Source: a virus (taxonomy: Duplodnaviria > Caudoviricetes). Taken from it: a stretch of 64,000 nt of DNA. The notes beneath the pieces were generated by a model that was not told where the DNA came from, ran no database searches, and worked only from the letters and a program-made list of their open reading frames with translations. Position numbers and translations under genes: made by a program. The DNA lies in IMG/VR virus record IMGVR_UViG_3300044267_003893, positions 22,071 to 86,070 of that record. The stretch is one strand, 5' to 3'. How positions within the stretch are numbered: position 1 is the stretch's first letter; each line of letters starts with the position of its first letter. This document shows, piece after piece, positions 9,001 through 40,101 of the stretch.

Positions 9001-11346
9001 TTGCTCTTGAGCATGTAAATTAGTGCCTTCTTCATATTGTTCATAATCAAATGGATTTACATATTTATCATTAAACTTAATATAGTTCTCTTGCACTTGA
9101 TCTATCTTCTTTATCATCTTTTCAAATCTCTTTCTTATCTCTGCTGGTTTAGAATCTGAATTTTCAAATGCGTTTGCTAGATCTACATCATTCATATTTA
9201 CAAAAGCCTGTAAATGAGCTTTAAAATCACCAGCCTTATTATGCCTAAGCATTGTATAGATATGACTAAATATTGCTTGATCTTTATAATCTTTAAAGCT
9301 CATTACATCATTATTATATGATGCCAATAATGCTAATTGATTATATTGTCTTTGGTTTAGTGCATCTAATTTATTAATATCAAGCATGTCTATTGGATTG
9401 TTCCACATCTCATCATACATCTCAATTACATTTTTAACATAATCTTTTTTTCTTTGAGCATATTCATCATATGATTTACGGTCTGTAGTATATCTATATA
9501 GATTAGGCATATGTTCAAACATCATTGTTTGAAATGGTTGAACTAAACCACCCATTAAAAAACCTGACATAAAAGTTTCAAAACTAACAGCTTCTGATTG
9601 CATACCTGCTCTTAAAGATTCCATCCAACTAGCATCAGCATTTTTTACTCTATCTTCTAATTCTGCACTATTCATATTCATAGAGTCTGATAATACATCA
9701 TCAAGTAAATTATCATAGTAATCTCCTACACCAGCACTAACCGCTTCTTGTGCTAATTCTTGAAAACCTTCTGCTATATTTGCTTTACTGTATGCTACAG
9801 CTGCAACTCCTAATCCTGTTAAACCACCTTTTAATCCTTCTTTGTAAATTCTTTTTAAACTTGTACCTGCATCTACAAAAGCTTTTTCTCCTGCTTTTGC
9901 TACACCTGCCTTTCCAGTTCTCATTATTCTTCTACCAAGACCTGCCTGACCTTCTTGAAGTAATCTTCCTAAAGGTTTGAATCCTCTTAATGCTGTATCA
10001 AGTACAAACTTATTACTTAAAAATATTATAGGAAAGTTAGCTAATGCTGTTTTCATTCCTGCACTTTTAGATGCATTTTGTAGTATAGCCCATTGTTCAT
10101 CAGTTGGAGATTTTCCACCATTATCTCTTACAATTTTCATGTAATTATGCTCATTAGTCTCTAACTCTCTTAAAGCTCCTTCTAATCTAGATTCAGCCCA
10201 TGCAACATTAAACATTCTTAAATCTCTATAAAATCCTCCAAATGTTTGATTTACCTTAGCTAAGTTTGTTAAATTTTTTGCAGTATTTTTTGTAGAATTA
10301 ACAGTTTGTATTGCTCTTGTTGTTTCAGGAGCAAGTTGTCTTACCATCCAATCAGCAGCTTTTCCTGGTTGTGTACCTTTTGCATAAGTATAAAAATCTT
10401 TAGCTTTATCTACAGCACCCACATGTCTCATTAGATCCATTGAATAATTACCAACAGTTTGTCCTGCACCTCGTATCATATCAACACCATCAAAAAAATG
10501 TTTAAATCTTCCTGCGTTTCTTGTGGCTGCCATAGCTGGTAATGCGTATCCTCCCATAAATGCTAATGCAGCTTCTTCTACAAACATACTACCTACTATA
10601 CCAAATGTATATGCACTATTTAAATAAAGGTCATTCATAAATCCTGTAACACCACCTCTAGTTGAAGAAGCAATTCTCATAGCATCTCTCATTGCTTCTC
10701 CTCCTTCATAATCCATTTTAAAAGGATCTCCATGAAGAGTATTTCTTAAAGTTCTCCAACCACTAGTAAATGCTGGTTTAAACATACTAACAAAAGCACT
10801 ACTAGTTCTACTTAAATCATCCCATGCTGTAGAGTTTTGATTATAGTAAGTTTCATTGTCAACAAAAGGATGGAAACCTAAATCATTAAATGAACTATGA
10901 TTCAAATACCTATCAGCATTCATTTGCTTCTTACCAAAAATTATAGGATTTTTCCAAGCACCTGAATGAGGTGTATCATTACCTATATTAGCAATTTGTT
11001 GACCAGATCTTCCAAGAAAATCTCTTCTACCTTGTTTAGTTGTTAAATCAAATTGACCTGTTTGATCTGCAAAAGGATTTCTATTATTACTTACATTTCC
11101 AGGATATGGGGAACTAAATCTAGTTGGATAAAGAGGTGAAGTTTTATTTATAGAAGCTGCTTGATTATCCATGAACTTTATTGTGTCCATGTTGAGTTTA
11201 CTATCAGGATTATAAGAAACTGTTGCTTCTCTTAAAGAATCTACAATATCATTATGATCTTTTGAAGAATATTCAATTGGTGATATATCAACTCCTTTAT
11301 CTAGAGGTAAGTTATTTCCAGTATTTGTATTTGTATTTTCTGCCAT
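1..11346 (-). CDS. Giant virion protein (>3782 aa, 3' partial): internal/ejection-type N-terminus, zincin-like metallopeptidase domain, probable start of the crAss-like virion RNA polymerase
   Basis: ATG at 11344-11346 (MAENTNTNTGNNLPLDKG...), 7 nt after the upstream stop. The frame was read as open to position 1 (...IITSEQSDATEVIFMGQTMT), and the track lists no minus-strand ORF here, consistent with run-off. HEAFH at 4492-4506 plus a downstream EEWLAD at 4291-4308. Size, position after the cargo genes and zincin fusion match crAss-like virion RNAP polyproteins. The catalytic Asp triad was not seen in the window. Confidence 0.8.
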   Translation of the reverse strand, partial: MAENTNTNTGNNLPLDKGVDISPIEYSSKDHNDIVDSLREATVSYNPDSKLNMDTIKFMDNQAASINKTSPLYPTRFSSPYPGNVSNNRNPFADQTGQFDLTTKQGRRDFLGRSGQQIANIGNDTPHSGAWKNPIIFGKKQMNADRYLNHSSFNDLGFHPFVDNETYYNQNSTAWDDLSRTSSAFVSMFKPAFTSGWRTLRNTLHGDPFKMDYEGGEAMRDAMRIASSTRGGVTGFMNDLYLNSAYTFGIVGSMFVEEAALAFMGGYALPAMAATRNAGRFKHFFDGVDMIRGAGQTVGNYSMDLMRHVGAVDKAKDFYTYAKGTQPGKAADWMVRQLAPETTRAIQTVNSTKNTAKNLTNLAKVNQTFGGFYRDLRMFNVAWAESRLEGALRELETNEHNYMKIVRDNGGKSPTDEQWAILQNASKSAGMKTALANFPIIFLSNKFVLDTALRGFKPLGRLLQEGQAGLGRRIMRTGKAGVAKAGEKAFVDAGTSLKRIYKEGLKGGLTGLGVAAVAYSKANIAEGFQELAQEAVSAGVGDYYDNLLDDVLSDSMNMNSAELEDRVKNADASWMESLRAGMQSEAVSFETFMSGFLMGGLVQPFQTMMFEHMPNLYRYTTDRKSYDEYAQRKKDYVKNVIEMYDEMWNNPIDMLDINKLDALNQRQYNQLALLASYNNDVMSFKDYKDQAIFSHIYTMLRHNKAGDFKAHLQAFVNMNDVDLANAFENSDSKPAEIRKRFEKMIKKIDQVQENYIKFNDKYVNPFDYEQYEEGTNLHAQEQIRWMAFEHAKMMFLFTKDTYERGVERMESILDKISANPAVTTMAANDIAALVGMSTEEGFKSAKGLQKEIDILTDEVAVAPVKTASKELKEQHKNKKEKLKILKEYRDTFLENKNYEKSGTKKQKVKKEDGSIVEEDVVEYSRRLTKAGKERIKKVFIKYLNHIAKTTGGQIADNDSINEAFEMIMDHTALKGRTADYYQASRILDNPTILNDIADRSAVAINKIWKHHKKKNVQRQKLTKFMDQQERGKIISELARKGIYTDVDDAQLFIKTGALPANWFSDENKINEITALDNPETYKTVQTVLRNYAKQKQAEEKVKEEESKDSEVVAEDVDLGDLDAADAIKEEEQYNAIDTEEDSNQTVAKDVNPLTVTSSKLIEFSNSDTSTNRILKKLYNNYTYAVNELGKTDLLDENNKPLDYSSWVIAAKGGAQILKARYHLHARYTFENLTKKRKKSFDEWLTANQAEQFFTNELNKRGLVAEEILVENVLDEIPEVEQVKKGLKSDEKLVETGDQYYNTGIKIIEKTTYNEENNQSRVHYIIRTIPDNKNAFFVYGGLKGAVDNLSEIYTDADPKVAKDKAFNAANWIKNNKPLQNEFFYNVKEGKEGKEKFITGEIVEDNKGNRYTVESKSRTVDSSGRLHVKSIDTGKSQVIDSGQFENEGWKRATDQEVEVKSSQVTKLQIIEPLKLYPYDYKSRPGETDSRDSITKENEQATLRNNINKKLQLLSPDQKDELVITIQKGDEFDDIMAVEPKDRAKLPGINKYPINPQLRKGASKYFVTIGTKDGTQLLVLASPQDVTLVDKKGNKIDPLTITYEQAQQLFRKGDIAHNKNINKQIQRNYAMAFAMEEVFGKLLEQSNTGSAVISLKKLRNEHKIVFDVTSDSPAFREVQREVDASTGKVKTTSVPGQSKIKELADNKFTLGEGTRTIDTSGKNREEEPYYIIWDQQIIIDKGGDPIESNKITNLPVTSKQDRRNFADINAKIADSMTRQGYDTTKSGRYVYFVYSPGLGDNGEYTAIQLKPAQKTFEQITALIHKLRDRMKITEDENVEVVNGERKVKDYSYTSLENDKLRHDLFISGKPGQHINFSINAYGDLEVAYINSKYLAKGQTKPWVVQKNYKYNYVNTILQNETGVQDLIRIINKDINKEVSDKQPHVADNTHAKISIQISGDNISFRESLPTNISAANNSFDFINKKTEAVITTQVRNNVQATLQSTDVAKVNIILNSTQEVERNKTEEESNKPINKGTDTSINSLDNDDYWNKIFNDGYETVDDDILEDIAKELAKNGEIQGDDKVADRKRYILEHPVVANKVEKLIKQVGDNIKDNESSNTSDASTDQTTLDEIDNLKEQSEKIYEEKYNEFLDLYGKEQLENGDNNPDYIADEGLREEQAMEAAENDPQVKALEKRIQDLDAQFKITEEFDGRDIEDINTFRKWLKDNLPSWITMADIDTLADRLQNQGITHGAFLMNLKTIGSRLQFAGQIYTSPETSFRYHEAFHAVFRLLLTNAEIKKYTKLGKEGLLKDLKSENKSIDEAIEDFRKLSPTYLKMSRKEAIDRMSEEWLADKFEEFKTKPKETKVEPEIKSLFQKIIDWIVSIFSQTSVADAEIEMSQLDTELHRLFKDIDSGRFKDVTTPEIGFNKFTKAVAESSGGISTPVYSIIKQDIITREYQVESVTRPGEFITRKRRILIPFTHHETDQLIKMTTALYYDLDKDFKPTKEQPSKDRNALIEKAVDMVIEMRRVSNPYYKQFSLSEKKIIKKKHKALLKDKTAIINGVKDYVAIGSRVENFLNTDDYLVENEDSESSYDANEKRNQQGQFKNVNELLRSMILTSSVEPREGDTFKNRVINPKDDGKKYKVKYSPDYIKVFNGLLKGLSGQKDSFKALKKMWMFAEYNEQTKAAVDVFIQHFFGPDGLKQMDKWVNGQGSVPTFKKADNARLFNLVMKAFYQFRVEYIQALRDVKSGNVSLISANKQTDEEWQLQIWSKEFDALLDEIRRDTFTGSGNNIAVKTNSKIIKKLQEFQNILNSNAPVDKATLQELGLEFSNFFRIRLGINLAPQYIEYSIAIARALDNQYAKDLVELNEGVPPINASVSADQKFSDIDSLIRSLSKGENLYNEADNENSQNTDPDQKKVTNAAQQDEGQAEGVYYRLQKWAIGNAAFDETVGSTVLYDSEGNYIYAHQVPSYHLEIAEEMNSEEGLRRLANRKGFESLKNNNLFNDERFKQLSLQGKLRIIRQLGLKDTSMKIKDGKLVEDKTLDVNTLPGRSFGNLTFNEFTASLFNMYGLHFNELTGKVKTLRYYDPATDTSNNEMAYNPLLIRVLSESNISDFQNVPMIEAIKKTLGPEGQTQFTDEYIDKWLKRIERKYNEIQYNYNRLANGERNEDDLEEGYNVIRDKKGFDITSIETVEETMSDVTTGRAYKFNYEVDGLLSIQKIIERQVSVDPEQVISIIGKDDIKFLTEGINNKKQKIFLKDKSIKGLDARNNATIIEIDGIEYYVRYEGNIQAQNSDLSEVLDGLGEGVQYSNQYDEDSGFVHKFDYNGAKYARRKTIANWFNTKDKTKKRYRIIPLEELKAEEDRQKRERDEDPLFDNQLKKHLEKNARNTKSPKTFSEAMDSYTDSKGRSGRDFIMEALMSQFNRFEDLMIHTNAIKGFDEKLLQGKLAYGTDKGVAAQALSSFGKMKLKTDDQSHNMKQIFFSNWLNTADLNEFYLGNQSMSLKDAVDAGKRAKMQNAGGASAASLVGAKEYGIEKVQKFGYITFKDPITKQTHNLEGGVSNGDRTDGQVYYTVNAFKHFWFGLGQLTRSQYELIRKIQNNEPVTAEEFFGQVGKNTLGYKQNKEYINAKKFVYGDGTVYLKMSMTILSPELDTWQDGPRKGQPKMNKMALYNMRMMAEEQERKTGKPMILVPETASKMTKRNVLNPEQASRMFNGTLDSETIDNAYDELDANFLRLQQVTPSNKDIIIEPIQIKNIITSEQSDATEVIFMGQTMT

Positions 11347-20316: not shown

Positions 20317-22251
20317 TTATAGTTTTGAAGTATAGCTATCATCTCTTCCTATTACTTTACCATCTCCATCAAAATCATATTTATTTAAATATTGTGATCT
20401 ATCTAATACATTCTCATCTGATTGATCTTTTGGTCTTTCAAATATTCTCATAAATGCACCAGTTGCATAAGTTGGATTTTTATAATCATTTTTTAAATAT
20501 TTTTCCATACTACGTTCTGTCATAGCATAATCAATTTGACCTTGCCAATTTGTTTTCCAATCTTCTCCTACAAAGTTTTTCATTTTTTCTAATCTAGATT
20601 TATGGTGTTGAAATAATCCTCCAGATGTACCGCTATCTCCCATTACACCTGGTCTAAATCCAGATTCATGTTCTATATTAGCAACTATACCTACTACTTG
20701 ATTTTCAGTTAAATTAGGATTTTTATATTTAATATATTCATATACATCATTTGCTGTAGGTTTAGATTTATTTTTAATATATTTTTTATCTGCTTGAATC
20801 ATACCTAATTTAACAAATTCATGTTTCATTGTGTTAGATATAGTATCACCAGCTAAATATCTTTTATATTCATTTTTTAATCTATTTTGTTTTTTATGGA
20901 ACTTACCTTCTAGATCTCCATTAAATTCCATCTTTTCTATTTCTTCTTTTGAATATTTATTTAAAAACTTATTAGCTATATTAGGTGGTAATGTATTTAA
21001 AATATAATGCTCAAAACTTTTTGATTCATCATATTTTTCATTAACCTCTCTAAACTGCTTCATAAATTCATATGGAGTTTTACTTTTAGATTCAAGATCT
21101 TCTCCATATAAATCAGGAAACATTTCACCTAAAGATGATCCATCTCTATATGTACCTTCTATAAATTTTTTTGTATTAGGTTCTCCCATAAAATTAATTA
21201 ATCCAGCTATTTCTGTTTGAGTATACGGAATATTTAAATTTCTATATTCATTCTGTATTTCTTTAGCTGCTTTCTCCATACTTCTTGAATTTTCATTTAA
21301 CACTCCATTAATCTTATTGTCAAATATTTCATTTTGTTTTTCTATATCATTCTTATATTCATCTAAAGTACCGCCATATATACCAGCATCTTTTAATACA
21401 GAATAATCTTGACCATATAAACCAGAAGAAAAATCATTATATTTTTCTGTATTAATTATACCAGCTTTTAATAAATTTTTATCTACTCCAGGATACCATA
21501 TATTTTCAAATTCTTCTCCAAAACCTTCTGCTAACTTATCATTTTCATGTGTTATATTTTGCCTATTAGGAATAGTATCATTATAAAAAGTACTGTCTTC
21601 TCCTATATTATAAACAAACCCATGACCATGAGGGTCTTCTACTTTATCTGGCTCTATTGAAGCTAATATATTTTTATATTCTTGAGTATCTTGATAACCA
21701 TTATCTTTATAAGTTTTCCACTTATTCCCATATGAAACAGAATTAAAACCACCAGCACCTTTAACAGAACCTTTACGTCCATCATAAAATTTATATGTTC
21801 TATTTAAGTCTACATTTTCATGGCCTGGATTATAAAAATCTATATGAAAATGAGCAGCACCTGGTCTTCCTCTTTCATCTAATATTCTCATATTATGTTT
21901 TTTTAAAAACTCTTTTCCGTGTGGAGTTAAAGTATGTATATGGTCATGAGCATTAAATTTTTTTGTTCCTTGATTTGGTGCAATTTCATAATCTTCAAAA
22001 AAGAAATCTAATAAAGCCCTATGCTCATTACTTGTAGAACTTATGTCTAAAGCACTTGCATGTGCGTGACTTGATGCCTTTTTATGCTTTGTTCTATATG
22101 CACTATTTAAACGAAATAAATAATCTTCTGTTTCTCCTATTTGACCCATAAGATCATAAAGAGCAACCATAGCATGTTCGTCTAGTTGTGTTTTCTGAGG
22201 ATTACTTCCTATTTCATATCCTTTATCACCATACATTTGTTTTGACTCCAT
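20317..22251 (-). CDS. Virion-associated multi-domain peptidoglycan hydrolase: N-terminal M15/LAS-type Zn peptidase plus C-terminal phage tail lysozyme
   Basis: SAYR...SHAHASALD (H-x6-D) and HFH give the LAS Zn ligands. The C-terminal GIVANIEHESGF...GGLFQHH...QIDYAMTE...FERP is a Phage_lysozyme2-like pattern. Confidence 0.8.
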   Translation of the reverse strand: MESKQMYGDKGYEIGSNPQKTQLDEHAMVALYDLMGQIGETEDYLFRLNSAYRTKHKKASSHAHASALDISSTSNEHRALLDFFFEDYEIAPNQGTKKFNAHDHIHTLTPHGKEFLKKHNMRILDERGRPGAAHFHIDFYNPGHENVDLNRTYKFYDGRKGSVKGAGGFNSVSYGNKWKTYKDNGYQDTQEYKNILASIEPDKVEDPHGHGFVYNIGEDSTFYNDTIPNRQNITHENDKLAEGFGEEFENIWYPGVDKNLLKAGIINTEKYNDFSSGLYGQDYSVLKDAGIYGGTLDEYKNDIEKQNEIFDNKINGVLNENSRSMEKAAKEIQNEYRNLNIPYTQTEIAGLINFMGEPNTKKFIEGTYRDGSSLGEMFPDLYGEDLESKSKTPYEFMKQFREVNEKYDESKSFEHYILNTLPPNIANKFLNKYSKEEIEKMEFNGDLEGKFHKKQNRLKNEYKRYLAGDTISNTMKHEFVKLGMIQADKKYIKNKSKPTANDVYEYIKYKNPNLTENQVVGIVANIEHESGFRPGVMGDSGTSGGLFQHHKSRLEKMKNFVGEDWKTNWQGQIDYAMTERSMEKYLKNDYKNPTYATGAFMRIFERPKDQSDENVLDRSQYLNKYDFDGDGKVIGRDDSYTSKL

Positions 22252-22261
22252 AAATATAATT

Positions 22262-25200
22262 TTATCTTATTGATAGATTTATTTTAGTATTAACTAATTT
22301 AAGTATCATTTTTCTTGTATGAAGAAAAGCTGCTGGATCTATAGGATTTCCTAATTCATCAAATATTTCAGGAACATTATTAATATTTGTATAAATTTGT
22401 TCTCCCTCATATATACATGTACCATCATCAACTGTTGCTTCTGGATAATAATTTAATGCTGTTGAGTCCATGCAACCACAAATAGATCCTGGAGGACATA
22501 CGTTTTGAGCATATATACAAGTACAATTATCAGCAGTAGCACCACCAAAATAATTTAATGCACTAGGATCTGTACATCCTGGAACACAACCTTCTTCAAG
22601 AATAGGTCCTTCTCCACATGGAAAACATGGTTCAGGTATTTCAGGAATTTGAATAGCAGGATTTACAAAATATTGAACTCTCTTTTTTAGAATTAAATTA
22701 TTAGTATAATGTCTGAATTTTTTACGTTCTAATTGTGGTTTATCATAATTCATATAAGAAGCATTTAAGTCTCTTATATAACCATTTAATTGAGTTATAA
22801 AAATTGATTCAGATATATTTCTATCATTTGTGATATCCCAAAATTGATCAAATCTATATTTTTGTTCTACTTTACTATATAGTATTTGTATATCTTCAGT
22901 TCCTATTATTGGATATTGTAATGTGTCATTTATATTTGCTGTTTGTTGATTTAATACTAATAAGCCTGAAACCTGTTCAGAATTATATATAATAGCTTCA
23001 TCAAAATTATACATTAAATCATGCCATCTATCATCACATCCAAAATTTAATACACAACCATCTGCATCAAATTTTGGTTTATATTGATATGATTCTAATT
23101 GATACTCAATACTTCTTACTGTATTAACAGACTGACCCATACTTTCAACAAGTTCTATTTCCCAAGGATATTGTACTGAATAATAATTATTAAATAAATC
23201 ACAACGTACATTATGTTTCCATATACCTCCTCCTTGATATGTAGGTTCTACAAATGCTTGTTTATCAAATTGACACATTGCAGGATTTTCATTAACATAT
23301 GTCCATTCTTCTCCTGTACCTGGATGTACTCCATAAAATTCTGAATACCCCCATAAATAAGGATCATCACAATCACCATATTCAGTTAACCATACATAAG
23401 GATCTATATCATCAGGTAGATTAGGAACTGTTAAATCATAATCTTCTAATACAGGACATGAACATTCTATCTTTATACATTTTGGTGGAAAGAAAGGATT
23501 TGTAGCTACTAGCTCACCATTTATAAGTTGATAATTAGCAAAAGTATCACCAACTTGAGTGTATCCTTCAGGACATTCACATTCACAAGGATTAAACATG
23601 TTTTGTATCAATTGATTGAGTATAGGTCCATAATCATCACAAGGTCCGTTTGCATATTGATACAGATAAGGTTGAGATTGAGTTGGTCCAAATCCATATG
23701 CATACTCTCCCTGATCACTACAAGATGAGTTAAGTAATCCGGCTTGAGCATAGTCTGGAAGATCTTCAAAACATGCAGCTACTGGATTAGCAAATACAGC
23801 AAATACTTCAGTTCCTGAATAACAAATATCAGCAGCATCACCACCAAATCCACCCTGACTTAATTGATCACTTAATAAAAATAAAATATTTCTAAAATTA
23901 GAACAAGAATATCTATCATTATAAGTTCCATCACCACATTGAACAGTCGTACTACCTATTGGCAATGCAGATTCTTCAGTATTCATCAGGTTCTCAAATC
24001 CTGCATCTAATCCTTCTTGTATATCTGTTCCACCACCAAAAGGATTTTGAGCATTTGGACATATACCCCAATTTGTAAACATTGGTGTACTTTCAGATTC
24101 ACCAGTATTAGACCAAAGAGTATATCCTGCTTGTATATATCCTGCATTAGCATAAGGTTGAAGTAATTCCATAAGACCACAAGCAAAACCCCATTCTGCT
24201 CCATATACACCCCCAGAATATGTTGATCCAGAAGCATCCATACTAAAAACTATATTCATTGGATCTACAGTTATTTCCGGGTCACAACAATCAACAACGT
24301 CTATATCTATTTGAGCAGGTTGAAGTTCTTGTATTTTATATTCACATTCACCTGTATCTGGATTATATAAAAATCCATCAACACAAGTAGGATATGGAAG
24401 AGGTCTTGTATTTGTTGTCATAAAATGGTTATGACTTTGTATATTAAGTTCTGGATGCCAATCATGAAAAGATACCCATCCTTTTATTTTTGGATCATAA
24501 CTTGCTGTCCATGATACATCTTTAAAGTAATCACTATCTTGTATATCAATTTCTGTTATTACATCATTATACACAGGATCAACACACTCTCTATCTTCAC
24601 AAACTTTAGCAGCACAATGAACTTGTATAGTCTCATCAAAACAATCAGTATCTGTAGCTGGTATATCTGTTCCATATAATACTAACTCATATTCTTCTCC
24701 GAGATGACTACAATCACAATATTCATCAAAAGGCTCCGGTAATGGAGGCAACTCATCACAGACAAGACATCCATCAATCAAAGCACTTTGTAATGTAGGT
24801 TTAATTTGTTGTTTTAGTTGTATAGGATTATATTTCCAATTTTTAGAATAATCATTAACATATGCTACATTTGGAAGACAATCAGGATCACTTGCCTGAT
24901 CTTCACCACACCCATAATAAGATAATATTCCTGACGCTTGAAAAGATGGTACCATATATAAAGGTCCACTTCCTATAGTTATAGGTTCAGTAGTTGGATC
25001 TGCAAGTTGGAAGAAAGGTAATTCAAAGTTATATACAGCACCCGTTTCCATTTCAGTTAAAGGTTCAGCAGTTGTACCTTGCCATGTAACACCACAATCA
25101 AATCCTGAAGGAGATCCTCTTTTACAATTATTTAAGGGGCCTGGTCCTGCAGCATCATAATCATAACCTGTATCATCAAGTGAATCAGGATTGTATAACC

Positions 25201-28200
25201 AAGGGCTAGTAAAATTAAAAGACCCTCCAGTACCATCTCCTAAAAATTGAAACTCTTCATCAGCTTCAAATGCTAGATCATTATGTTCATGTTTTGCTCC
25301 TATAACATGTCCTAGTTCATGTAAAAGTAATTGTGTGCTACCATAATTACCAACATTATCATATTGATCTTGAGTTTCAATATCAAGATCCATATTAAAA
25401 GCACCTTCATTAAGAAAATCATTGCTTAGAGAAAGCGCAGCAGAATAATGAGGTCTATGATAACCTAGATCGGTTATACTATTACAACCTACACTTCCTG
25501 TAAGCCCTACACCACTATTACTAAAATTATTAACAAAACCTGGTATACAACCGTCTGGAAATTGTTCTTCACAAGTTAAAGCTGAGTCTGTATTACATTC
25601 ACAAAATCCATCCCAATTAGATAAATATTCATATATCTCATAAGGTGAACCATCTGGCATTTCTGTGCATTGTCTTGGTCTTGTAATCCAAGTACCAACT
25701 ACATCTTTTGGTATTGCAATTAAATCAGGTTCATTACTATGTAGTGTTCTAGATAGTAAATTTAAAGTATTCATACTTCCCATTAAACCTCCCCATGTAG
25801 GAGCATAAGCAAGACAATATGAATTAATACAATCATCACCAGTATACTGAGCTCCATGAATATATGGACATTGATCTGGATCTTCATATATTGCTATACC
25901 TGCTAATGTAATTTGTGCACCAACATTTTGGAACATTATTTCACTCATTATTGCAATCTGTGCTTCTACATATGCGGTCCAAGCATCAACATCGTTTTGA
26001 GGATAAAAAGCTGGATTATAATTTGTTAACCAGGTATTACACGTGTTACCAAAAGGTGCAGCAGCAAAAGTAAACCAAGGTATATCAACAAAATGTCTTA
26101 TACAAACTTCTTCTCCATCTACAAACATTACAGATGGATTTTGATCTAACATTCTAGATGATATATTTGATTCACCTCTAGCTGATCTTGCTGCTCTTTC
26201 TAGTTTAAAGTTTACTTCTGATTCATTTGCTTTCCAAATATTTCTTAACTCATTTCTTCTGTGTATAATTTCTTCAGGGGTTCCATCATCTGTTCCACAA
26301 CCTAAATTATTAATTTCAACTACACCTTCTCCTTCTACTCTTCCTATTCTATCTGAAAATTTAAATAAACCATATTTTGAATTTTGAAGTTGACCAATAT
26401 CATATTGCTCATCATTTATCATTATAAACCCTGTTATTTTAGAATTATCTTTATTACCTGAAATTATTATTTTTCCTTTATATTTATAAAGTTCATTAGT
26501 TAATATAGATTGTTCTTCTCCTCTTATATTATAAATTCTATTAGAAGTTGGTTTACTATCTTGCATAATAATACCATCCTTAGTACTTCTTCTAACTTTA
26601 AAACTATTTAAAATAGGAGATGCTTCAATTAAATTTACAGTAAGTACTTCATCATTTTTAAATGGTATTTCTAAATGAAATTTCTTAGGTTTTTTATCCC
26701 AAATAGTATCAAAAAATATTTTAGATACTCTAAATGATATACTATTATCTTTATCTCTAGTTCGCTCTGCTTTTTGTTTTTCTATTGGATTAGTAAAAGT
26801 TTTTCTAATAAAGCTTTTTCCAAAAGAAACCATTTCACCAGTATCTGGACTATCTTCATCATCATCTTCACCTTCAGTATCTTCAACTGGTAAAACTTGA
26901 TATGCTCCAGTTACTACTGTACAGCATTTTTGTAATTCTTCATCCCATATCCAACCTCCTGGACAAGGTCTACAACAACTTTGAAGTTCTTCATCCCATT
27001 CATATTTTGGATGAGGACAGCTTCTTACTTGCTCTACTCCAAGACATTCTGTTTCATTTACAAAAAACATTTGATTTTCTGGATCAAATTGTAAACATTG
27101 ATTTGTATTACAAGGTTCATAATCCTTTTTACTAAAGTATACAATGTCATAGTTAGGATCATATACGGCTTGGCAACCAATACCTATTACAGGATTATCA
27201 GCAAATTTAGTTCCTTCTAATTCTGGAAATGCTTTTAATAATCTAGATGGTAAATATGTATTAAACCATTGTTTCATTCCTGCATCAGCAATATTAGTTA
27301 ATGACTGTGAGTAATTAAATATTTTACCTTGAGCTTGAGACATGTAATATACTCCTGCAGGTGTATTTATTACACTCAATGAATTTTCACATGATCCATA
27401 TTCATGTGGTAAATCAGCTGTACTTATTTGTTGCATTGGATCATTAAATAAACCTCCATCACCAATAGTAAGCTTTGTGTTAAAGTCTGTACTTAAAGTA
27501 TCAACACCTTGAAATAATTGTGGAGCTATATGAGGAAATAAAATTAATGCTCCTGATTTAGATATAGGTTTAACTGTAGTAGGAACGTTTTTAAAGTCTT
27601 GATAATTATTTGGTAAGAATACTCTCCAAAAATCTTTTTTAGATTCTTTATTAGCTTGATTTGAATATATTATTCTTTTAGTATAGTAATCATAACATGT
27701 ATCTGCTACTATAGGATCATAGTCTCTTGGTTGTATTAATCCGTAAGTTACCATTTGACTTACCATATTAGATTTACTTAAAGAAAAATCATATTTATAA
27801 TAATTACCTTTCTCTATTATATCTGCATGAAATAATGATTGAATATCTGTATAGTCAGCCCAATCATAATGTTTTTGATCTGTACTTTCTCCTTGATGTC
27901 TTAATCCTACATTAAGTTCTGATTCAACAAAGAAATCATTTATACCACTACAATGAGTATACATATAAGCAGTTCTTAAAATAAACATACTATTAGTTGA
28001 AGTATTTTCTTGATTTTCAACATCTTCTAATACAGGACCATTAGCAAGATAAACACCAGATCCAAGATCTGATGTATCACCAATAGCAAATCCAGGTGGT
28101 CTATCTAAATTACGCATTGCTGATGGAACAGCATTACCATCAGTCCAATCAAAAGAAAAGTTTGTAATAGGTGCAAGTATATTATGAATATCATATTTTG

Positions 28201-31200
28201 TAGTATCCATCCAATATCTTGCAAAACCAACATTCATATACTGTCTATAATCAAAAGCAAATTTATCAGGTTGCCCATTTAAAAATTCCCAAAAGAAAGG
28301 CATTATAACCTTTTCATTATATCTATTTATATAACAATCACCACCAAATAAAATACCTGATTTAAATACTTCTCCTGGTACAAATGTATCATCATCTAAA
28401 TTTTCAGTAAATGGAACTAAAGTATCTGGTGTAACTTCAACATCTTCAACATACACACAAGTACAATCATCATTAGTGGCAGTTGAATTATAGTTAACTG
28501 CTAATGGATCTGTACAACCTGCAATACAGTTTCCTAATATCCAATCATCTCCTTGACAAGGAGAACATGGTTCAGGTTCTTCTGTAAATCCTGGTCTAAT
28601 AAATTTTTGAGCACAAGGTACAGGTAGTTGTTTAATACCATCTAATTGACCATATTGATTATCCATTGCAAACTTTAATCCTACATAATGAGCACCAATA
28701 TATGATATATAACTTTGAGTAGGAGTAGTCCAATTCTCTAAAGTACCTATTGTAAATCTAGATGAATCAAAGTTATTACCATCTTGCCATATTGGAGTTT
28801 GAATATTTCCAAAAGTTCCTGCAGTTTGAATAGTAACAGTAGCAGGTCTATGTAAATTATTAATTTTAATATTCTCAGTAGTATTAGTGGATCCAAAGTC
28901 TTGTAAGGTGTTACCTACATATCTTCCTTTGGTTATATTATTTCTATATACAGATCCTTCTTGAAGTTCAAATGTATCTGAATACAGACCATATGAATTA
29001 TATTTATAGGCATGATTTCTTAATCCTGCTACATTATATATAAAGTCAATTATTATATCTCCACCTACAGCAGCATAATGGAATGTCATAAATACACCAC
29101 TTATAATCTGTCCTAAGTTAGGTAGTGATTTTACATCAGTACCTTCAAACTTAATTTTTCTATTACCTATTGCTTCACCAAAAGCAGCTTGTTGTATAAG
29201 GTTAAGAGGTTGAAGTGTACCGTCTAATATTGTACCTGTACCTGAGTAATATGCAGCTTCAGCTATACCTGGTGTAGCAAGAGAACCCTGTGTAAATCCA
29301 GTTTCTGCAGCTTCTATAAGTAAATTATTTACAATACCTGGATTAGGACCAAATAAGGGAGGTGGAGCTCCTATTCCTGTTGCTACTTCAAGTTCAGTAG
29401 CTCTTTTACCACGCATTTTACTAATTCCATAACCTACACCGACCACTGCTGCAATGATAGCTGCAAAGTCTCGTAATAGTGTAACTTTAGGATGTCCTTC
29501 GGAAGGTCTAAAAGATCCTGTTTGAATACCCCTTGTCCATCCGTAAGTCTTAACTTCAGCAGGATTTAAATAAGGTCTTTGGAAAGATGTCTCAGGTGAA
29601 TGAAAAGTATAAAAATTATTACAATTCAAAGGATTAGTACTATTACCACAATATCCTGTACCTGGTTGTCCCATAGGTTGTGGGTTTGTATTATCCCAAA
29701 ATTGTGGTGCAGCTGTTGTTAAAAAAACATCATTGTTAGTACTATTATATGGATAGTTAGCATGAAGACCTACAGATCCTTGAGCAATTCCATCTCCAAA
29801 AGTATCTACTAGAGGATATTGTTTCATGTTTCTAAATAATCCTTTTGATAGTATAGATTTGTTACCTTCTCTTGATCCAACTAAAATTTCATAACCTACA
29901 ACATTTGATATTGGTTTACCAGAATTATCTATAGGCCAAGCAATATTATCAAATTCAACTCCTAAAATACGTATTCTTTGATTATTATTATTAGATCTAT
30001 CAACAGTCCATTCTGTAGTATCTGTTTGTTCTTCTGGAAATTTATGATGTCTAATAGGTTTACCACATAAATCTCCCCATCTTCCATGAGGATCTTCTGA
30101 AGGATATAATTCTGTTGATTCCCAATATCCCATTTGACCTTTAGAAAGTATAACACCTCCATCATCTGTTGTTGTTACTCCATCAAATTCATCTACAGAT
30201 GCTGTATTAGAAACTTGCCATGGTTCTGTTTCATTTGATCTAAGTATATTATTACCATCTGTAAGTGTAGAATCTTTTTCATCATCAGTTGCTTCACGTC
30301 CAGGAATATGATATGAACTAGATTTTTCACCAGTTTGATAAATAAATCTAATAAAGAAAGCATATTGTTCATCTCTCATAAATGTTGGCTTATTACCACC
30401 ATTCTTATAATACTCAGCAGGATATTCTACAGAAACCCATTTAGCAGTTATGTTATTTGCTAAAGGTTGATAATTAAAATCAAAATTTGTTGTTGGACTT
30501 ATTCTAAGAAGATAATCATTAAGAGGTATCATCTTATCAGATTTTTCATATGCAGGATTTTGTAAAGTTAAATTCTGCAATGGAACTTGTTGTGATGTAG
30601 CTTTATTTGTAGGGATATAATCAATACTAATAGTTGTTTGTTTTGTACTGTAAAATCCCACTTGAACAGCTGTTGGTTGTTGCTGTTGATTTGATAATAT
30701 AACTAATTTATAAAAATCAAAATTTTCATCTAAGTTAGAAATTTTTATATTTAATGAACAGGCTGTACCATCATTATCAAATAAAGGTTGAATATTAGAT
30801 ACACCAATATAATCACCTATTTGTTGTTCATTTATTGTATATGCAACATAGGCTTGATAAGATCCATTAGGTAATTGTCCAGGACTATCTCCTTTCTCAA
30901 TATCAATACATGGAGTTTTCATTAATGGTGCTAAACGTATAAGATCACAATTGAGTCTTTTTGGTTCTATGTCTTCATAAACATAACAATCAGAACCATC
31001 AATTCCAGGACCTGAAACTTGTTCTTGAAACCAAGGAACATATTCATTTTCAGGTATACTATTAGCAAAACCTAAATTAAGAGTTCTAGAAGGATTTAAA
31101 CCATCATCCCAATATATTTGCCAAGTACAATCATAGTTTTCTTTAGCAGCTCCTGTTATAAGATTAGAATGTCTAAAGTTTAAACATTGATCATTTACTA

Positions 31201-31531
31201 ATGTAGTATATTCACATTTACTATCATCAAATAATCCTATCTCACTTCCCCAATTATCATTTCCAGAAAATATTATCCAACTATCTCCATATAAATAAAT
31301 GGCACCTATAATAACAAATCCTGTTTGAACACATATAAGATTAGCAGGTTCATTACCTATAGTACCAGCATCACCTTTTGCAGAATTATTAATACAATTT
31401 CTACAGTGTACCCAGTTTTCTTTTCCCACAAAACTTTTATGAGAATCTTTTATCATACCTTTTACAAATACATCAGTATCTACATTAGAGGTATCATTAG
31501 GTTTAAAGTTTTTACTTTTATTCTCTGCCAT
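22262..31531 (-). CDS. Tail stabilisation protein (crAss-like, P22 gp10-like class), 3089 aa, with inserted metzincin protease, vWA and Cys-rich modules
   Basis: Conserved-looking segments (NDYLLRIS...FMRDEQYAFFIRF; GWVSFHDWHP; GIWKHN...YPWEIE) are interrupted by HELGHVIGAKH (25289-25321) and DASGS (24224-24238). Located after the ring-protein genes. Confidence 0.75.
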   Translation of the reverse strand: MAENKSKNFKPNDTSNVDTDVFVKGMIKDSHKSFVGKENWVHCRNCINNSAKGDAGTIGNEPANLICVQTGFVIIGAIYLYGDSWIIFSGNDNWGSEIGLFDDSKCEYTTLVNDQCLNFRHSNLITGAAKENYDCTWQIYWDDGLNPSRTLNLGFANSIPENEYVPWFQEQVSGPGIDGSDCYVYEDIEPKRLNCDLIRLAPLMKTPCIDIEKGDSPGQLPNGSYQAYVAYTINEQQIGDYIGVSNIQPLFDNDGTACSLNIKISNLDENFDFYKLVILSNQQQQPTAVQVGFYSTKQTTISIDYIPTNKATSQQVPLQNLTLQNPAYEKSDKMIPLNDYLLRISPTTNFDFNYQPLANNITAKWVSVEYPAEYYKNGGNKPTFMRDEQYAFFIRFIYQTGEKSSSYHIPGREATDDEKDSTLTDGNNILRSNETEPWQVSNTASVDEFDGVTTTDDGGVILSKGQMGYWESTELYPSEDPHGRWGDLCGKPIRHHKFPEEQTDTTEWTVDRSNNNNQRIRILGVEFDNIAWPIDNSGKPISNVVGYEILVGSREGNKSILSKGLFRNMKQYPLVDTFGDGIAQGSVGLHANYPYNSTNNDVFLTTAAPQFWDNTNPQPMGQPGTGYCGNSTNPLNCNNFYTFHSPETSFQRPYLNPAEVKTYGWTRGIQTGSFRPSEGHPKVTLLRDFAAIIAAVVGVGYGISKMRGKRATELEVATGIGAPPPLFGPNPGIVNNLLIEAAETGFTQGSLATPGIAEAAYYSGTGTILDGTLQPLNLIQQAAFGEAIGNRKIKFEGTDVKSLPNLGQIISGVFMTFHYAAVGGDIIIDFIYNVAGLRNHAYKYNSYGLYSDTFELQEGSVYRNNITKGRYVGNTLQDFGSTNTTENIKINNLHRPATVTIQTAGTFGNIQTPIWQDGNNFDSSRFTIGTLENWTTPTQSYISYIGAHYVGLKFAMDNQYGQLDGIKQLPVPCAQKFIRPGFTEEPEPCSPCQGDDWILGNCIAGCTDPLAVNYNSTATNDDCTCVYVEDVEVTPDTLVPFTENLDDDTFVPGEVFKSGILFGGDCYINRYNEKVIMPFFWEFLNGQPDKFAFDYRQYMNVGFARYWMDTTKYDIHNILAPITNFSFDWTDGNAVPSAMRNLDRPPGFAIGDTSDLGSGVYLANGPVLEDVENQENTSTNSMFILRTAYMYTHCSGINDFFVESELNVGLRHQGESTDQKHYDWADYTDIQSLFHADIIEKGNYYKYDFSLSKSNMVSQMVTYGLIQPRDYDPIVADTCYDYYTKRIIYSNQANKESKKDFWRVFLPNNYQDFKNVPTTVKPISKSGALILFPHIAPQLFQGVDTLSTDFNTKLTIGDGGLFNDPMQQISTADLPHEYGSCENSLSVINTPAGVYYMSQAQGKIFNYSQSLTNIADAGMKQWFNTYLPSRLLKAFPELEGTKFADNPVIGIGCQAVYDPNYDIVYFSKKDYEPCNTNQCLQFDPENQMFFVNETECLGVEQVRSCPHPKYEWDEELQSCCRPCPGGWIWDEELQKCCTVVTGAYQVLPVEDTEGEDDDEDSPDTGEMVSFGKSFIRKTFTNPIEKQKAERTRDKDNSISFRVSKIFFDTIWDKKPKKFHLEIPFKNDEVLTVNLIEASPILNSFKVRRSTKDGIIMQDSKPTSNRIYNIRGEEQSILTNELYKYKGKIIISGNKDNSKITGFIMINDEQYDIGQLQNSKYGLFKFSDRIGRVEGEGVVEINNLGCGTDDGTPEEIIHRRNELRNIWKANESEVNFKLERAARSARGESNISSRMLDQNPSVMFVDGEEVCIRHFVDIPWFTFAAAPFGNTCNTWLTNYNPAFYPQNDVDAWTAYVEAQIAIMSEIMFQNVGAQITLAGIAIYEDPDQCPYIHGAQYTGDDCINSYCLAYAPTWGGLMGSMNTLNLLSRTLHSNEPDLIAIPKDVVGTWITRPRQCTEMPDGSPYEIYEYLSNWDGFCECNTDSALTCEEQFPDGCIPGFVNNFSNSGVGLTGSVGCNSITDLGYHRPHYSAALSLSNDFLNEGAFNMDLDIETQDQYDNVGNYGSTQLLLHELGHVIGAKHEHNDLAFEADEEFQFLGDGTGGSFNFTSPWLYNPDSLDDTGYDYDAAGPGPLNNCKRGSPSGFDCGVTWQGTTAEPLTEMETGAVYNFELPFFQLADPTTEPITIGSGPLYMVPSFQASGILSYYGCGEDQASDPDCLPNVAYVNDYSKNWKYNPIQLKQQIKPTLQSALIDGCLVCDELPPLPEPFDEYCDCSHLGEEYELVLYGTDIPATDTDCFDETIQVHCAAKVCEDRECVDPVYNDVITEIDIQDSDYFKDVSWTASYDPKIKGWVSFHDWHPELNIQSHNHFMTTNTRPLPYPTCVDGFLYNPDTGECEYKIQELQPAQIDIDVVDCCDPEITVDPMNIVFSMDASGSTYSGGVYGAEWGFACGLMELLQPYANAGYIQAGYTLWSNTGESESTPMFTNWGICPNAQNPFGGGTDIQEGLDAGFENLMNTEESALPIGSTTVQCGDGTYNDRYSCSNFRNILFLLSDQLSQGGFGGDAADICYSGTEVFAVFANPVAACFEDLPDYAQAGLLNSSCSDQGEYAYGFGPTQSQPYLYQYANGPCDDYGPILNQLIQNMFNPCECECPEGYTQVGDTFANYQLINGELVATNPFFPPKCIKIECSCPVLEDYDLTVPNLPDDIDPYVWLTEYGDCDDPYLWGYSEFYGVHPGTGEEWTYVNENPAMCQFDKQAFVEPTYQGGGIWKHNVRCDLFNNYYSVQYPWEIELVESMGQSVNTVRSIEYQLESYQYKPKFDADGCVLNFGCDDRWHDLMYNFDEAIIYNSEQVSGLLVLNQQTANINDTLQYPIIGTEDIQILYSKVEQKYRFDQFWDITNDRNISESIFITQLNGYIRDLNASYMNYDKPQLERKKFRHYTNNLILKKRVQYFVNPAIQIPEIPEPCFPCGEGPILEEGCVPGCTDPSALNYFGGATADNCTCIYAQNVCPPGSICGCMDSTALNYYPEATVDDGTCIYEGEQIYTNINNVPEIFDELGNPIDPAAFLHTRKMILKLVNTKINLSIR

Positions 31532-35700: not shown

Positions 35701-38700
35701 TTAACAATCTGCTACATATTTTATATTAACCCAATAAATACCAGTAGTAGCTCCATCTCTATCATATTGTGCAACTCTTCTAACTGAATTTGTAGTAGCA
35801 GCTCCATGTTGTGCATAATATGCTCCATCTACTGGCTGATCAGTTACAGCTCCAGCATTTCCTCCTGCTGCAGATAAATAAGCTGGTACACTTGGATCAA
35901 ATTGAACTCCTGTTGTATTATATAAGTTTATACAATTACTTGCAGTTACCGCAGCAGTTCCTGCTTTAGTACAATTTGTGGTATCACCTGAATCAGTAGC
36001 ATATGTTGAAACCGGATCTCCATTAAGTGTTCCTGACATAATTTGTACAGAATCAGTACCTGTTGGACATTTTGTATCAGTAGTTAATTCCATGCCAGAA
36101 GTATCAATACCTGTTACACGCATTATTGCATTACCTATAAAGTTTGATTGATCTCCTCCAGAATGTAAATTAGAATCAGTTGTTAAATAACTCTTATCTA
36201 TAAAAGGAACAACTCTAAATCCATAATTATATAAACCACTAATAGTATTAGATCCACCTACAGTTGTTCCTGTATATGGAACCATTTGAGATGAGTTAGG
36301 TCCAATATAACCATCTATATTAATTGGATTTTTAACACTACCAGTAGGGAATCCTTTTAATCCTGTTTCTGATAATACTGTTCCTGTTAAAGCACCTGCT
36401 GTTTGTAATACTGTTGCAGCACTTCCATCTTGTGATGAAGAAACTATAGGTACCAATACTTGTTTTAAATCAAACTTTTTATATGTACATCCTTGAGCAG
36501 TTCCCCAACTAGTTCTTGCAGAACCATTAACGTATAATATATCTAATAATTCATCATAATTTTGTTGATACTTAGCAGTAGGTTGTGAACCCCATCCTGC
36601 TGATAAAGTTGCACCACCATAATTACCTTTAGAATTAACATCTCCAATAAAGCAAATTAAGTATACAGTACTTGGTACAGAACCTCCAGATGCCCAATAA
36701 GAAGGTAAACTCTTAAATGAAGAATATCCTGGTGCTACAGTTATACTACCACTTGCTCCATTAGCTTTATCTACCATTGATTTAGTATATTCCATATAAT
36801 CACCAGAATTACCACCTGCTACAGGTACATAATTAATAGTTCCTGTCCATGTTGAACAATTAGATTGAATTAATGTTTTAACTCTTTCCATTTCTGTTTT
36901 TATAACAGCTGCTTCATCTTCACTTAATATATTAGTATCAACAAATACAGTAATATCCGTATCTGTATTTTGAACTGTTGAAGCATCAACTATAGGTATT
37001 GTTATAGTATTAATAGTTCTATTACCTGGATTACCTATAGTACAATCTGTTTCTGCATATACCTCTACAGAATCAATTCCACTAGCTGGACGTGTAGAAT
37101 TAGGAGTATATTTTAATTGAACAGTTCCTCCTAAATTAGAATCATATGTTGAATCAGAAGGTAAAACAAAAGAAGTTGTACCACCTAAAGTAGATGTAGC
37201 ATTCCATGTAATTGGAGTAGTTTGTGTTGAATATCCTACTATATCAATAGGGATTCTTAAAGTTTTACTAGCAACTGCATACCATGCATGTCTATCTGGT
37301 GCATATGCTTCTGAAGTTGAAATTGTAGAAGTATCTCCATATTTAGTTCTTACATAAGATGGCTTGCAATCACAACAAAAAACAACTTGATCTATAGTTT
37401 TATTGACAGTATTAGCTAAAGCATAAATATAATATGTTGTAGCTCCTGCTTTTTTTAGAGATCCTACATATTGCCATCCGTTTTCATTTGAATTCATTGT
37501 AGTAGTCATTCCACTAGCTGGATATGCTACATTTCCACAACTTATACTAGTTGTAGGATTATCACTAATAGCTGTTGTATTAAGAACAAAATGACCATCT
37601 GTTCCTGTTTCAGTACTATCTGTACCTTTATAAACTTCAGGTAATCCTGTAGAAGAATTAAATCCTACTATCCATGCTGTAGTTGTAGCTCCACTTCTAT
37701 TAGTAGCTAATGTTAATTTTGTAGTACCTATACTTGATATTGTTGAAAGATAATCAGAAGATGTTTTACTATAGGATGTACAAGTAGCAGAAGTAGTTGT
37801 AAATGTAGTTCTATCACAAGTTGAAATATTTCCTGATAAACTTGTTGTTTGAACATAAATATCATATTTAGTTCCTGCAATTAATCCAGCTGTTTTTCCA
37901 GTTGTAGAAGTTGCTGTTGGTGATTTAATAGTTTGTTTAGAAATCATACTTCCTGATTGATCCTCAACTATAACTTCATAAGTAGATTTTGAAACAGTAC
38001 TCATTTTAGTTACACTATATTCTACAGATGTTTCTCCTGTAGTAGTTAAAGTAACTGTAGGACATGCTGATGAATTTTCTAATGTAAATTCCATAATACG
38101 TTCACATTGATGAGAACCATCTGTAAAACAAAAATCTATTTTTATTTTAAAATTACTATTTAAATCTAATCCTTTACCATTTAAACCTGCAATACTAAAA
38201 CCTCTAGTATTTGTTAAGTAATTATTAACTTGTACATAATCTATATAAGTATTAAGAGATGAGTCTTCTACAGTAATTTTTGTTCCTTTTACTTTATCAC
38301 AATCATAAAATCCATCAGGAATTACCATGCTTGTAAATAAAAATTTAATACTTGATACAGCTCCTGTTGTTTGATTTTTAACTAAACTTACTTTTGGATC
38401 ATATGTAAATCCAGTACATCCAGAAGGAGTTACAGTAGTTTGTAAACTATCAAGTGCTGTTCTCATATCACATATAGTTTTCCATGCATTACTAAATGAT
38501 TGAGCTAAATTTGATGGTGAAGTATTCCATCCTGGAATTGATGTCATGGTACCATTACCACTTAAACGATCTTTAGTATTTAAACCAACACATGAAGCTT
38601 TAGAAGCTTTTAAAATTTCTGGAGCAGTTCCTAATGCTTGTTTTAATTTACCATAATCTTTTTCTAAGAGTTCTAGGAGTTGATTCATCTCCATTCTTTG

Positions 38701-40101
38701 ACCCTTCTTACCTATATATTTTGGTACAACTTTAGGTGGAACGTATGCAGCACCTCCTTTACCTCTTTCTATTTCTCTTATTTGATTTTTAAGTGTTGTA
38801 ATAATAGGTAGTCTAGCTATGTGAGAATTGCTAACTCCCGTACCAAATCCTTGACTTTCTCCTACTATTGTAACATCACCTGTATCTACTGTCCCCATTC
38901 CTGGTTTAGGAGCACACGAACCATGACTAGCATTTAATAAACAACATATCTTTTGATTTACAAAATCTGTCCAACCACTATATTGATATTCTTCTACTGT
39001 TGTACTAGCATTGTCATCAAAATCACCATAATTATCTGGATCATAAGCCCAATTTATTATTTCAGAATAATAATCATCTTCAAGAGTTTGCAAGAACATA
39101 GTGTCACCTGCTACAAGTGGGGTATTTTGATCTGGATCATTTATGTTGTTATATAAATCACCAACTAATTGTGAACTGCCACTACTAGTATAACCAGTAA
39201 AAAAACATTGTGGTAATACCACCTTAATTATTCCTGGATCTCCAGGTTCACCTTGTAGACCTTGTTCACCCTGAATAGTTTCTCCTGTAAAAGATGTACC
39301 ATCACTATATAACCAAGTAAATGTACCATCACCATTATCTGTAGTACTTATAATTGTTATACCATCTGCACCTTGTTCTCCTTGTAAACCTTGCTCTCCT
39401 TGTAAACCTTGCTCTCCTTGTATACCTTGCTCTCCTATTGGTCCTTGCCATAAATCAATTACATAAGGCTCATCTCCTGAACAAGTTGTATAAATTAAAA
39501 AAGTATTATTATCATTTTGTACAACATTACTTATACCACAACCATCTGGCCCAATATCTCCTTGTAATCCTTGTAATCCTTGTAATCCTTGCAATCCTTG
39601 TGCACCTTGTGGTCCTTCTGGTCCTTCTGGTCCTTCTAAACCTTGTAGTCCTTGTTCTCCTTGTAGTCCCTGTTCTCCTTGTGCTCCAGACAAACCCTGC
39701 ACACCTTGTAAGCCTTGCGGTCCTACAGCTCCTTGTGGTCCTTGTTGTAATTCTAGTCCATCTATATCTGCTATTATTTCTTGAATAGCATCAATATTAA
39801 AATTTACTTGATTTTGTACATTACATAATGTATAAATTATATCTTGAGTAATTTCTTGAATTGTAGTTCCTGGAGCTTCCTCATCTAAAGTACAAAGTGG
39901 TAAAATACCACTTACATCAACAGAAGCTTCTAATCCATTTTCTATTAAAGAACATATTAATTCAGCAATTTTTGCAATAACAGTGCTTACATTATCACCA
40001 TTACATACATTAATACAGTTTAAATCTGGCCCTTGCCAAATAACACATTCAGATGATATAGGATTGCATCCTCTTGTAGCCTGAGTACTTAATGGTAACA
40101 T
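35701..40101 (-). CDS. Tail/head fibre protein with collagen-like repeats and an FN3 domain, 1466 aa
   Basis: Three G-X-Y blocks ([13 protein letters not shown]..., [13 protein letters not shown]..., [13 protein letters not shown]). FN3-like ...[16 protein letters not shown] at about 37830-38065. Thr/Ser-rich beta-type C-terminal half. Confidence 0.8.
39205..39760 (-). repeat. Collagen-like G-X-Y tandem repeats (9/18-nt units)
   Basis: Tandem TCCTTGTAA units (about 39558-39597), GGTCCTTCT x3 (39611-39637) and ACCTTGCTCTCCTTGTAA units (about 39371-39436). Confidence 0.9.

Follow-up and report, generated by a model that had tools for sequence, protein, structure and literature searches.

A reprolysin-like zymogen module inserted in the muzzle protein of a marine crAss-like phage

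Can a phage carry a whole protease zymogen inside the protein of its tail tip, and what would it be used for there? The question is raised by a 64,000-nucleotide stretch of viral DNA (the window in what follows; Duplodnaviria, Caudoviricetes; positions 22,071 to 86,070 of the IMG/VR record IMGVR_UViG_3300044267_003893). One uninterrupted open reading frame (ORF) on its minus strand (22262..31531, 3089 amino acids (aa), from the ORF list and its translation) encodes the muzzle, or tail-tip, protein of a marine crAss-like phage. An earlier note, made from the letters of the window without database searches, had read in this protein a metzincin protease with prodomain and complete catalytic domain, spliced in frame into the host protein. 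The motifs it quoted are all found at the coordinates it gave, on the minus strand, which it had left unstated. All coordinates below are those of the window, and all features lie on this strand.

The protease segment and its bacterial relatives

The segment in question (24750-26833 in the earlier note) corresponds to aa 1567-2261, and by sequence it is homologous to the secreted reprolysin-like zymogens of marine Flavobacteriales. A phmmer search with the segment against 1.84 billion representatives returned only two proteins, P0002 (E 4.9e-11) and P0003, the matches spanning the beta-rich N-terminal part. Both are bacterial, have signal peptides and clear Reprolysin_3/_5 domains, and P0002 is found on a marine metagenome contig which also encodes SprB and CHU_C domain genes, typical of Bacteroidota. 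The profile of 24 bacterial reprolysin-like proteins (A1) aligned to the segment in hhalign (98.8%, E 1.2e-16, 257 columns) over the prodomain and, in the catalytic domain, over its N-terminal half, and the zinc motif region was aligned separately (E 1.5e-5). The hidden Markov model (HMM) of the prodomain matched the segment with E 1.1e-19. In Pfam the match to Reprolysin_5 (cut-off 27) is marginal, with 29.0 bits when the segment is taken alone and 24.4 bits when the entire protein is searched, the best stretch being the motif region only (aa 2044-2085). In a phmmer search of PDB sequences the segment gave only a marginal motif match to BMP-1/astacin (E 0.2), and the family HMMs barely recognise the catalytic domain of this phage.

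The prodomain (aa 1567-1745, 26297..26833) is supported by phmmer, the prodomain HMM, hhalign and AlphaFold. It starts at MVSFGKSF (aa 1567-1574, 26810-26833), includes the stretches FHLEIPF (from aa 1618) and ITGFIMINDEQYDI (from aa 1699), and ends at Cys1745 (26297-26299) within the motif LGCGTDD (aa 1743-1749, 26285-26305). This cysteine is invariant in the 24 bacterial sequences and aligns in all 14 phage sequences (38 in total). We considered the MVSFGK stretch as the remnant of a signal peptide and dropped this idea, as it is absent from the other phage modules, whose sequences begin at the mature N-terminus. The linker which follows (aa 1746-1799, 26135..26296) is longer in the alignments than in the bacterial enzymes and is predicted to be helical (helices at segment residues 186-218).

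The catalytic domain (aa 1800-2261, 24749..26134) is of the adamalysin/reprolysin type with large lineage-specific loops, as judged by VIA-align, Foldseek and, for its N-terminal half, hhalign. Its zinc-binding motif HELGHVIGAKHEH (aa 2071-2083, 25283..25321) is supported by hhalign and by invariant columns. The part HELGHVIGAKH (aa 2071-2081, 25289-25321), the sole HExxH in the 3089 aa, has the extended form HExxHxxGxxH, and its H, E, G, H and H occupy columns that are invariant in an 82-sequence alignment of the catalytic domain (A3). The catalytic residues H2071, E2072, H2075 and H2081 are intact, and they are kept in the sister phages P0123 and P0129.

The Met-turn had been placed by the earlier note at GILSYYGC (aa 2201-2208, 24908-24931), with Leu instead of Met, and both A3 and the intermediate phage modules back this placement. 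In A3 the residues S2204, Y2205 and C2208 are in invariant columns and the Met column of the family holds L2203, and the alignment through the intermediate modules agrees on SGILSYYGC (aa 2200-2208, 24908..24934; block-mean predicted local distance difference test (pLDDT) 68). The homologous turn is present and its conserved Met is replaced by Leu2203; with one defining residue changed, membership in the metzincins rests on descent. An alternative placement, in which a local 45-sequence MAFFT alignment paired the family's GTIMSYC with GTTAEPL (aa ~2151), was rejected given the agreement of A3 and the intermediate-module alignment on SGILSYYGC; the C-terminal helix, weakly placed at KYNPIQLKQQ by hhalign, also counted against it. 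By sequence alone the turn was ambiguous, and HMMs of the family trimmed to the middle part, the Met-turn or the C-terminal helix could not be placed significantly in the catalytic domain.

Structure prediction points to the same family. In the AlphaFold model of the whole segment the prodomain is confident (block-mean pLDDT 69-92 for segment residues 21-160), the first half of the catalytic domain moderate and the C-terminal half poor. Its best matches are zymogen ADAM17, with E 8e-6 in Foldseek and Z 13.4 in VIA-align over 308-313 residues across prodomain and catalytic domain. Because of the poor C-terminal half, the catalytic domain was refolded alone (aa 1800-2275) with a deeper, trimmed alignment of 80 bacterial homologues and the sister phage. 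This second model (predicted template modelling score 0.65, mean pLDDT 59) has confident strands, helix A, active-site helix and C-terminal helix, and low-confidence inserted loops, in which the extra length (about 460 aa versus about 250 aa) is located. Compared with the snake-venom adamalysin 1kug_A in VIA-align it reaches Z 18.9 with a root mean square deviation of 3.0 over 198 of 201 residues (model residues 1..461). Altogether 131 chains reach Z >= 8 against it, and the top Foldseek matches are all M12B enzymes. The predicted fold is accordingly that of the adamalysins and reprolysins, over whole adamalysins in the second model and over zymogen ADAM17 in the first, and this, together with the sequence profiles, backs the earlier note's reading of the segment as a metzincin with prodomain and complete catalytic domain.

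The bacterial reprolysin-like zymogens of Flavobacteriales and other Bacteroidota (P0002, P0003, L003-L082) share with the phage copy the prodomain with its invariant Cys, the first strand, HELGHxxGxxH, the S-Y-x-C turn region and the C-terminal helix. They are, however, free-standing proteins that bear a signal peptide and, at the C-terminus, TSP3, LRR or Por-tail domains, whereas the phage copy lacks a signal peptide and is anchored by both its ends in a virion protein. It further differs by about 200 extra loop residues, by the Leu in the Met-turn and by HEH instead of HTH after the third His. The adamalysins, snake-venom metalloproteinases and the ADAM17 zymogen (MEROPS M12B; 1kug, 1iag, 9o54, 9q7y) are alike in fold, in the arrangement of prodomain and catalytic domain and in the zinc motif, but have only 12-17% sequence identity to the phage module, in which the disintegrin and Cys-rich domains of the ADAMs are absent. 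Eukaryotic ADAM prodomains are cut off at a furin site, while no such release is possible or evident in the phage module.

Insertion into the muzzle protein and recurrence in related phages

The carrier is identified as the muzzle protein by its N-terminus, which matches Pfam PF25731 (crAss_MUZ) with 74.2 bits (cut-off 27; E 8.8e-21; best stretch aa 19-284), and by the position of its gene, taken as after the tail ring genes and before the cargo and RNA polymerase genes. CrAss_Ring_2 and CrAss_Ring_1 genes are directly upstream, and the order ring 1, muzzle, cargo matches gp43-gp44-gp45 of Bacteroides phage crAss001 and is also found in the relatives L002 and L085. The earlier note had called the carrier a tail stabilisation protein: the in-frame insertion into a tail protein stands, the name does not, since this is the muzzle protein (PF25731) and the older bioinformatic label could not be mapped onto the gene. 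Of the deposited phages, the Cellulophaga phages phi17:2 and phi4:1 come nearest for the muzzle, the core being about 25% identical. A search with the N-terminal core gave 1700 homologues, which are 1698-5406 aa long and of which many derive from Tara Oceans, and the whole protein gave no match to PDB sequences.

The protein resembles gp44 of crAss001 in the N-terminal Pfam match, in the place of its gene behind those of the ring proteins and in core block A, which aligns weakly to gp44 residues 1122-1211. However, gp44 has 1371 aa and no enzyme domain, while the muzzle protein described here has 3089 aa and the protease module. The crAss001 muzzle, a hexamer of about 1 MDa, seals the tail end, is thought to touch the cell surface and varies in length via insertions (PMC10172136).

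The N-terminal muzzle core (aa 1-1475, 27107..31531), seen from BLASTP to the phi17:2 structural protein and from the 1700 homologues, ends in block A (aa 1400-1475). A Cys-rich connector ending in an acidic linker (aa 1476-1566, 26834..27106; the acidic part aa 1550-1566, 26834-26884) leads into the insert, and similar Cys-rich connectors precede the other phage copies. A second Cys-rich connector (aa 2262-2317, 24581..24748), homologous to one after the module in other phage copies, leads out of it. The core then resumes in block B (aa 2318-2375, 24407..24580; phi17:2 residues 2049-2096), present in 115 homologues, and ends with block C and the C-terminus (aa 2765-3089, 22265..23239; phi17:2 residues 2102-2244). 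BLASTP matches to phi17:2, which is without the insert, run to aa 1474 and resume in frame at aa 2325-2372 and 2769-2923. Among the 115 homologues the gap between blocks A and B (site 1) ranges from 12 to 1777 aa and that between blocks B and C (site 2) from 8 to 824 aa. In the insert-free P0169 (1698 aa) and P0199 (1705 aa) the flanking blocks are 28-39 aa apart at site 1 and 8-10 aa at site 2.

The exact muzzle protein is found on three contigs, near-identical partial copies (P0124, P0127) come from other projects, and the full-length sisters P0123 and P0129, 85-97% identical and from other assemblies, have the same architecture and neighbouring genes. The earlier note had itself raised two objections to the in-frame splice, an assembly chimera at the junctions and a segment present as core in all crAss-like homologues. 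The first is excluded by the independent assemblies and the second by the insert-free P0169, P0199 and phi17:2.

A further claim of the earlier note, that no described crAss-like tail protein is known to carry such an insert, does not extend to uniqueness, since the module recurs in at least 12 related marine muzzle proteins: 12 others among the best 120 of the 1700 muzzle homologues carry prodomain and catalytic domain. The protease is at site 1 in P0001, P0123, P0130, P0135, P0139, P0151, P0161 and P0221, and at site 2 in P0133, P0134, P0140, P0194 and P0227, flanked in every phage copy by Cys-rich connectors. All 11 other complete phage modules keep HExxH-x5-H, even though the closest pairs among them can be as low as 45-61% identical.

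In a tree of 77 sequences (quick search, midpoint root) the 13 phage modules form one clade, supported by a value of 97 in the Shimodaira-Hasegawa-like approximate likelihood ratio test, nested in marine Flavobacteriales-type enzymes beside P0002 and the P0003 group (98). The nesting points to a transfer from bacteria to phage: the module has its ancestry among the secreted proteases of marine Flavobacteriales-type bacteria and entered the phage muzzle lineage once. The branch leading to the module of the present phage is very long (1.88), making it the most diverged copy. Sister module clades sit at different insertion sites, and the presence of the same module at two hot spots in this manner indicates that it moved or was exchanged between sites.

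A tblastn search of 50,697 GenBank phage records gave no match for the segment or for the less diverged P0194 module. Scanning IMG/VR with the bacterial family profile, using search patterns too narrow to estimate prevalence, found a further muzzle protein that contains the module (L087), together with 39 other loci on viral contigs. These loci (L088-L126) include 36 ORFs of about 480-1230 aa with intact HExxH-x5-H, related to the same reprolysin-like family and lying on contigs classed as viral; none matched the muzzle core. Muzzle insertions (PMC10172136) and enzyme domains on phage tails are already known, and in the papers searched we found no report of a phage tail, crAss-like or other, with a metzincin or a metzincin zymogen.

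Possible function of the module

That a complete bacterial-type M12B zymogen with intact HExxHxxGxxH lies between two conserved C-terminal muzzle blocks we regard as practically certain. The explanation which we favour as a whole, a muzzle-borne bacterial-type M12B zymogen acting as a virion protein "depolymerase", appears somewhat probable, and its specific mechanism, the cleavage of host surface proteins, is proposed tentatively. The muzzle would be hexameric by homology to gp44 of crAss001, so that about six protease modules could project from the tail end. The prodomain may hold the enzyme latent, possibly through a cysteine switch at C1745. The switch Cys of ADAM17 likewise lies upstream of its catalytic domain. 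On contact with the cell the enzyme would cut surface proteins of the host, adhesins or another protein layer, allowing the muzzle to reach the outer membrane; alternatively, it might destroy receptors. Exposure of the module on the muzzle is plausible, because insertions in the crAss001 muzzle are said to change the surface properties of the assembly, in a tail stabilised by disulfides (PMC10172136), and because Cys-rich connectors flank the module.

The module evolves faster than the muzzle core, as judged from sequence comparison of this phage with its sister P0123. Protein identity is 97% for the core, with a ratio of nonsynonymous to synonymous rates (dN/dS) of 0.2-0.3, 96% for the prodomain (dN/dS 0.58), 80.5% for the catalytic domain (dN/dS 1.0) and 86% for a second insert at site 2 (dN/dS 0.93). 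The synonymous rate is likewise raised in the catalytic domain. Substitutions are patchy: among the long unchanged stretches are the first strands, helix A and aa 2090-2139, and the zinc helix has just two changes, both conservative. A module far more divergent than the core is likewise seen in three of four further close phage pairs.

Several of these data weigh against the favoured explanation. A dN/dS of 1.0 in the catalytic domain would fit an exposed domain under diversifying selection or recombination, and would fit relaxed constraint equally well; the substitutions, moreover, neither track the confidence of the model nor avoid its confidently folded elements. The replacement of the Met-turn Met by Leu is seen only in this lineage, the 11 other complete phage modules and the bacterial family all keeping Met, and with the long branch it suggests that the enzyme of this lineage may have a changed or weaker activity. 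Since both ends of the prodomain are tethered, it cannot be removed in the classical way. Residues with pLDDT below 50 amount to 391 of 695 and 209 of 476 in the two models. Length variation of the crAss001 muzzle is ascribed to insertions in the crass and IG2 domains (PMC10172136), whereas here it is the C-terminal beta-propeller part, further along, that appears to hold both hot spots, block A ending at about gp44 residue 1200 in weak alignments (E 1e-5 and 8e-4). Finally, protease activity, latency, location at the tail tip and substrate are all features which we infer.

Some of the same observations would be explained if the module were a non-catalytic binding or recognition domain, in which the protease fold serves as a receptor-binding scaffold and changes rapidly to track variation of the host surface. 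A dN/dS near 1 with patchy substitutions, the Leu and the branch length of this lineage, the usually higher divergence of modules than of muzzle core and the occurrence of catalytically dead ADAMs, e.g. ADAM22, among the fold matches are all in line with it. It is nevertheless unlikely in our view, as the H-E-H-H set is kept in this phage, its sister and all 11 other complete modules in spite of deep divergence, and as the prodomain with its invariant Cys, for which a pure binding domain has no obvious use, is retained.

Even less probable is a virion-internal or maturation protease, which would process the muzzle, cargo stored in the tail or other tail parts during assembly or ejection. The muzzle of crAss001 does touch the cargo protein stored in its tail (PMC10172136), and in the window cargo-like genes, including one for a tail lysozyme protein, are directly downstream. 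The module derives, however, from secreted extracellular enzymes, as told by the signal peptides and the SprB and CHU_C genes on the P0002 contig. Inserts which range from almost nothing to 1777 aa have to be dispensable for assembly, and most relatives assemble without any protease.

A decaying relic, drifting neutrally in this lineage at a site which tolerates any insert, would account for the dN/dS of about 1.0, the poor recognition of the catalytic domain by the family HMMs and the loss of the Met-turn Met. It is difficult to reconcile with about 2.1 kb without stops or frameshifts in two lineages with about 20% difference between their catalytic domains, with stretches conserved at 95-100%, among them the first strands, helix A, the zinc helix and the Met-turn region, or with a whole adamalysin fold still being predicted, and we judge it very improbable. 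An assembly chimera or gene-calling artefact joining a bacterial protease to a phage gene, conceivable in a window from a metagenome-type assembly, is refuted by the copies of the exact protein on three contigs, the partial and full-length copies from other projects, the 12 further diverse muzzle proteins with the module and the in-frame resumption of the core, and its chance is negligible.

Gene neighbourhood and significance

Site 2 of the muzzle protein holds the second insert (aa 2376-2764, 23240..24406), given here as context only, where phi17:2 has about 6 aa. It is vWA-like (von Willebrand factor A) with a DxSxS motif (FSMDASGS) and is 86% identical to that of the sister phage, and no Pfam match was obtained for it either within the whole protein or when searched alone. 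About 35 of the best 120 muzzle homologues have Pfam VWA (PF00092), the position of the domain being unmapped in them. Cys motifs of the form GCTDPxAxNY..A..DD.(S/T)C.Y are found three times in the muzzle protein (28487-28516, 22550-22576 and 22445-22474), and the same small motifs also follow the protease domain in the bacterial homologues and in other phage modules; they look like a common mini-module of marine Bacteroidota serving as connectors.

Directly downstream of the muzzle gene, at 20317-22251, is the gene of a 644-aa protein with Phage_lysozyme2 at aa 499-617 and tape-measure-type PHROG matches, likely an ejected cell-wall hydrolase. An ORF of more than 3782 aa (1-11346) continues past the edge of the window, in the position that the genes of the virion RNA polymerase or cargo proteins have in crAss-like phages. 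The gene at 35701-40101 encodes a 1466-aa protein with collagen-like or tail-fibre PHROG matches at aa 105-290.

Virion-borne enzymes which remove a surface barrier before entry are known in the form of the glycan depolymerases of phage tailspikes. Baculovirus enhancin is a virion-borne metalloprotease which digests the mucin layer of the insect gut. The logic proposed here would be common to both, a particle-borne enzyme clearing a barrier before entry. Phage depolymerases are, however, almost all glycanases or lyases carried on fibres or spikes, and enhancin belongs to another zincin family and is not a tail part, whereas the module described here is a metzincin zymogen within a nozzle-like tail tip.

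One may go further and imagine, in a clade of marine crAss-like phages, a six-fold tail tip with a latent, host-derived metzincin, often together with a metal-dependent vWA adhesion domain, as a "bind-and-cut" device which would clear by proteolysis the protein layers of Flavobacteria-type cells before ejection of the DNA, its modules being swapped between the two hot spots as fast-evolving determinants of host range. This extension is possible but doubtful; if true, a podovirus nozzle would here have a protease-type depolymerase built in for the first time. The less diverged copies of the module in related phages are material for expression and assay without a cultured host. Since the surface-breaching enzymes borne on phage tails almost always cut sugars, a protease zymogen at the tail tip would be a different route across surfaces rich in protein, those of gliding marine Flavobacteria for example. 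The crAss-type muzzle is also seen to be a modular platform with two hot spots for the uptake of host genes, the protease in this phage and vWA domains in relatives, and this modularity bears directly on host range in some of the most abundant phage lineages of the ocean and the gut.

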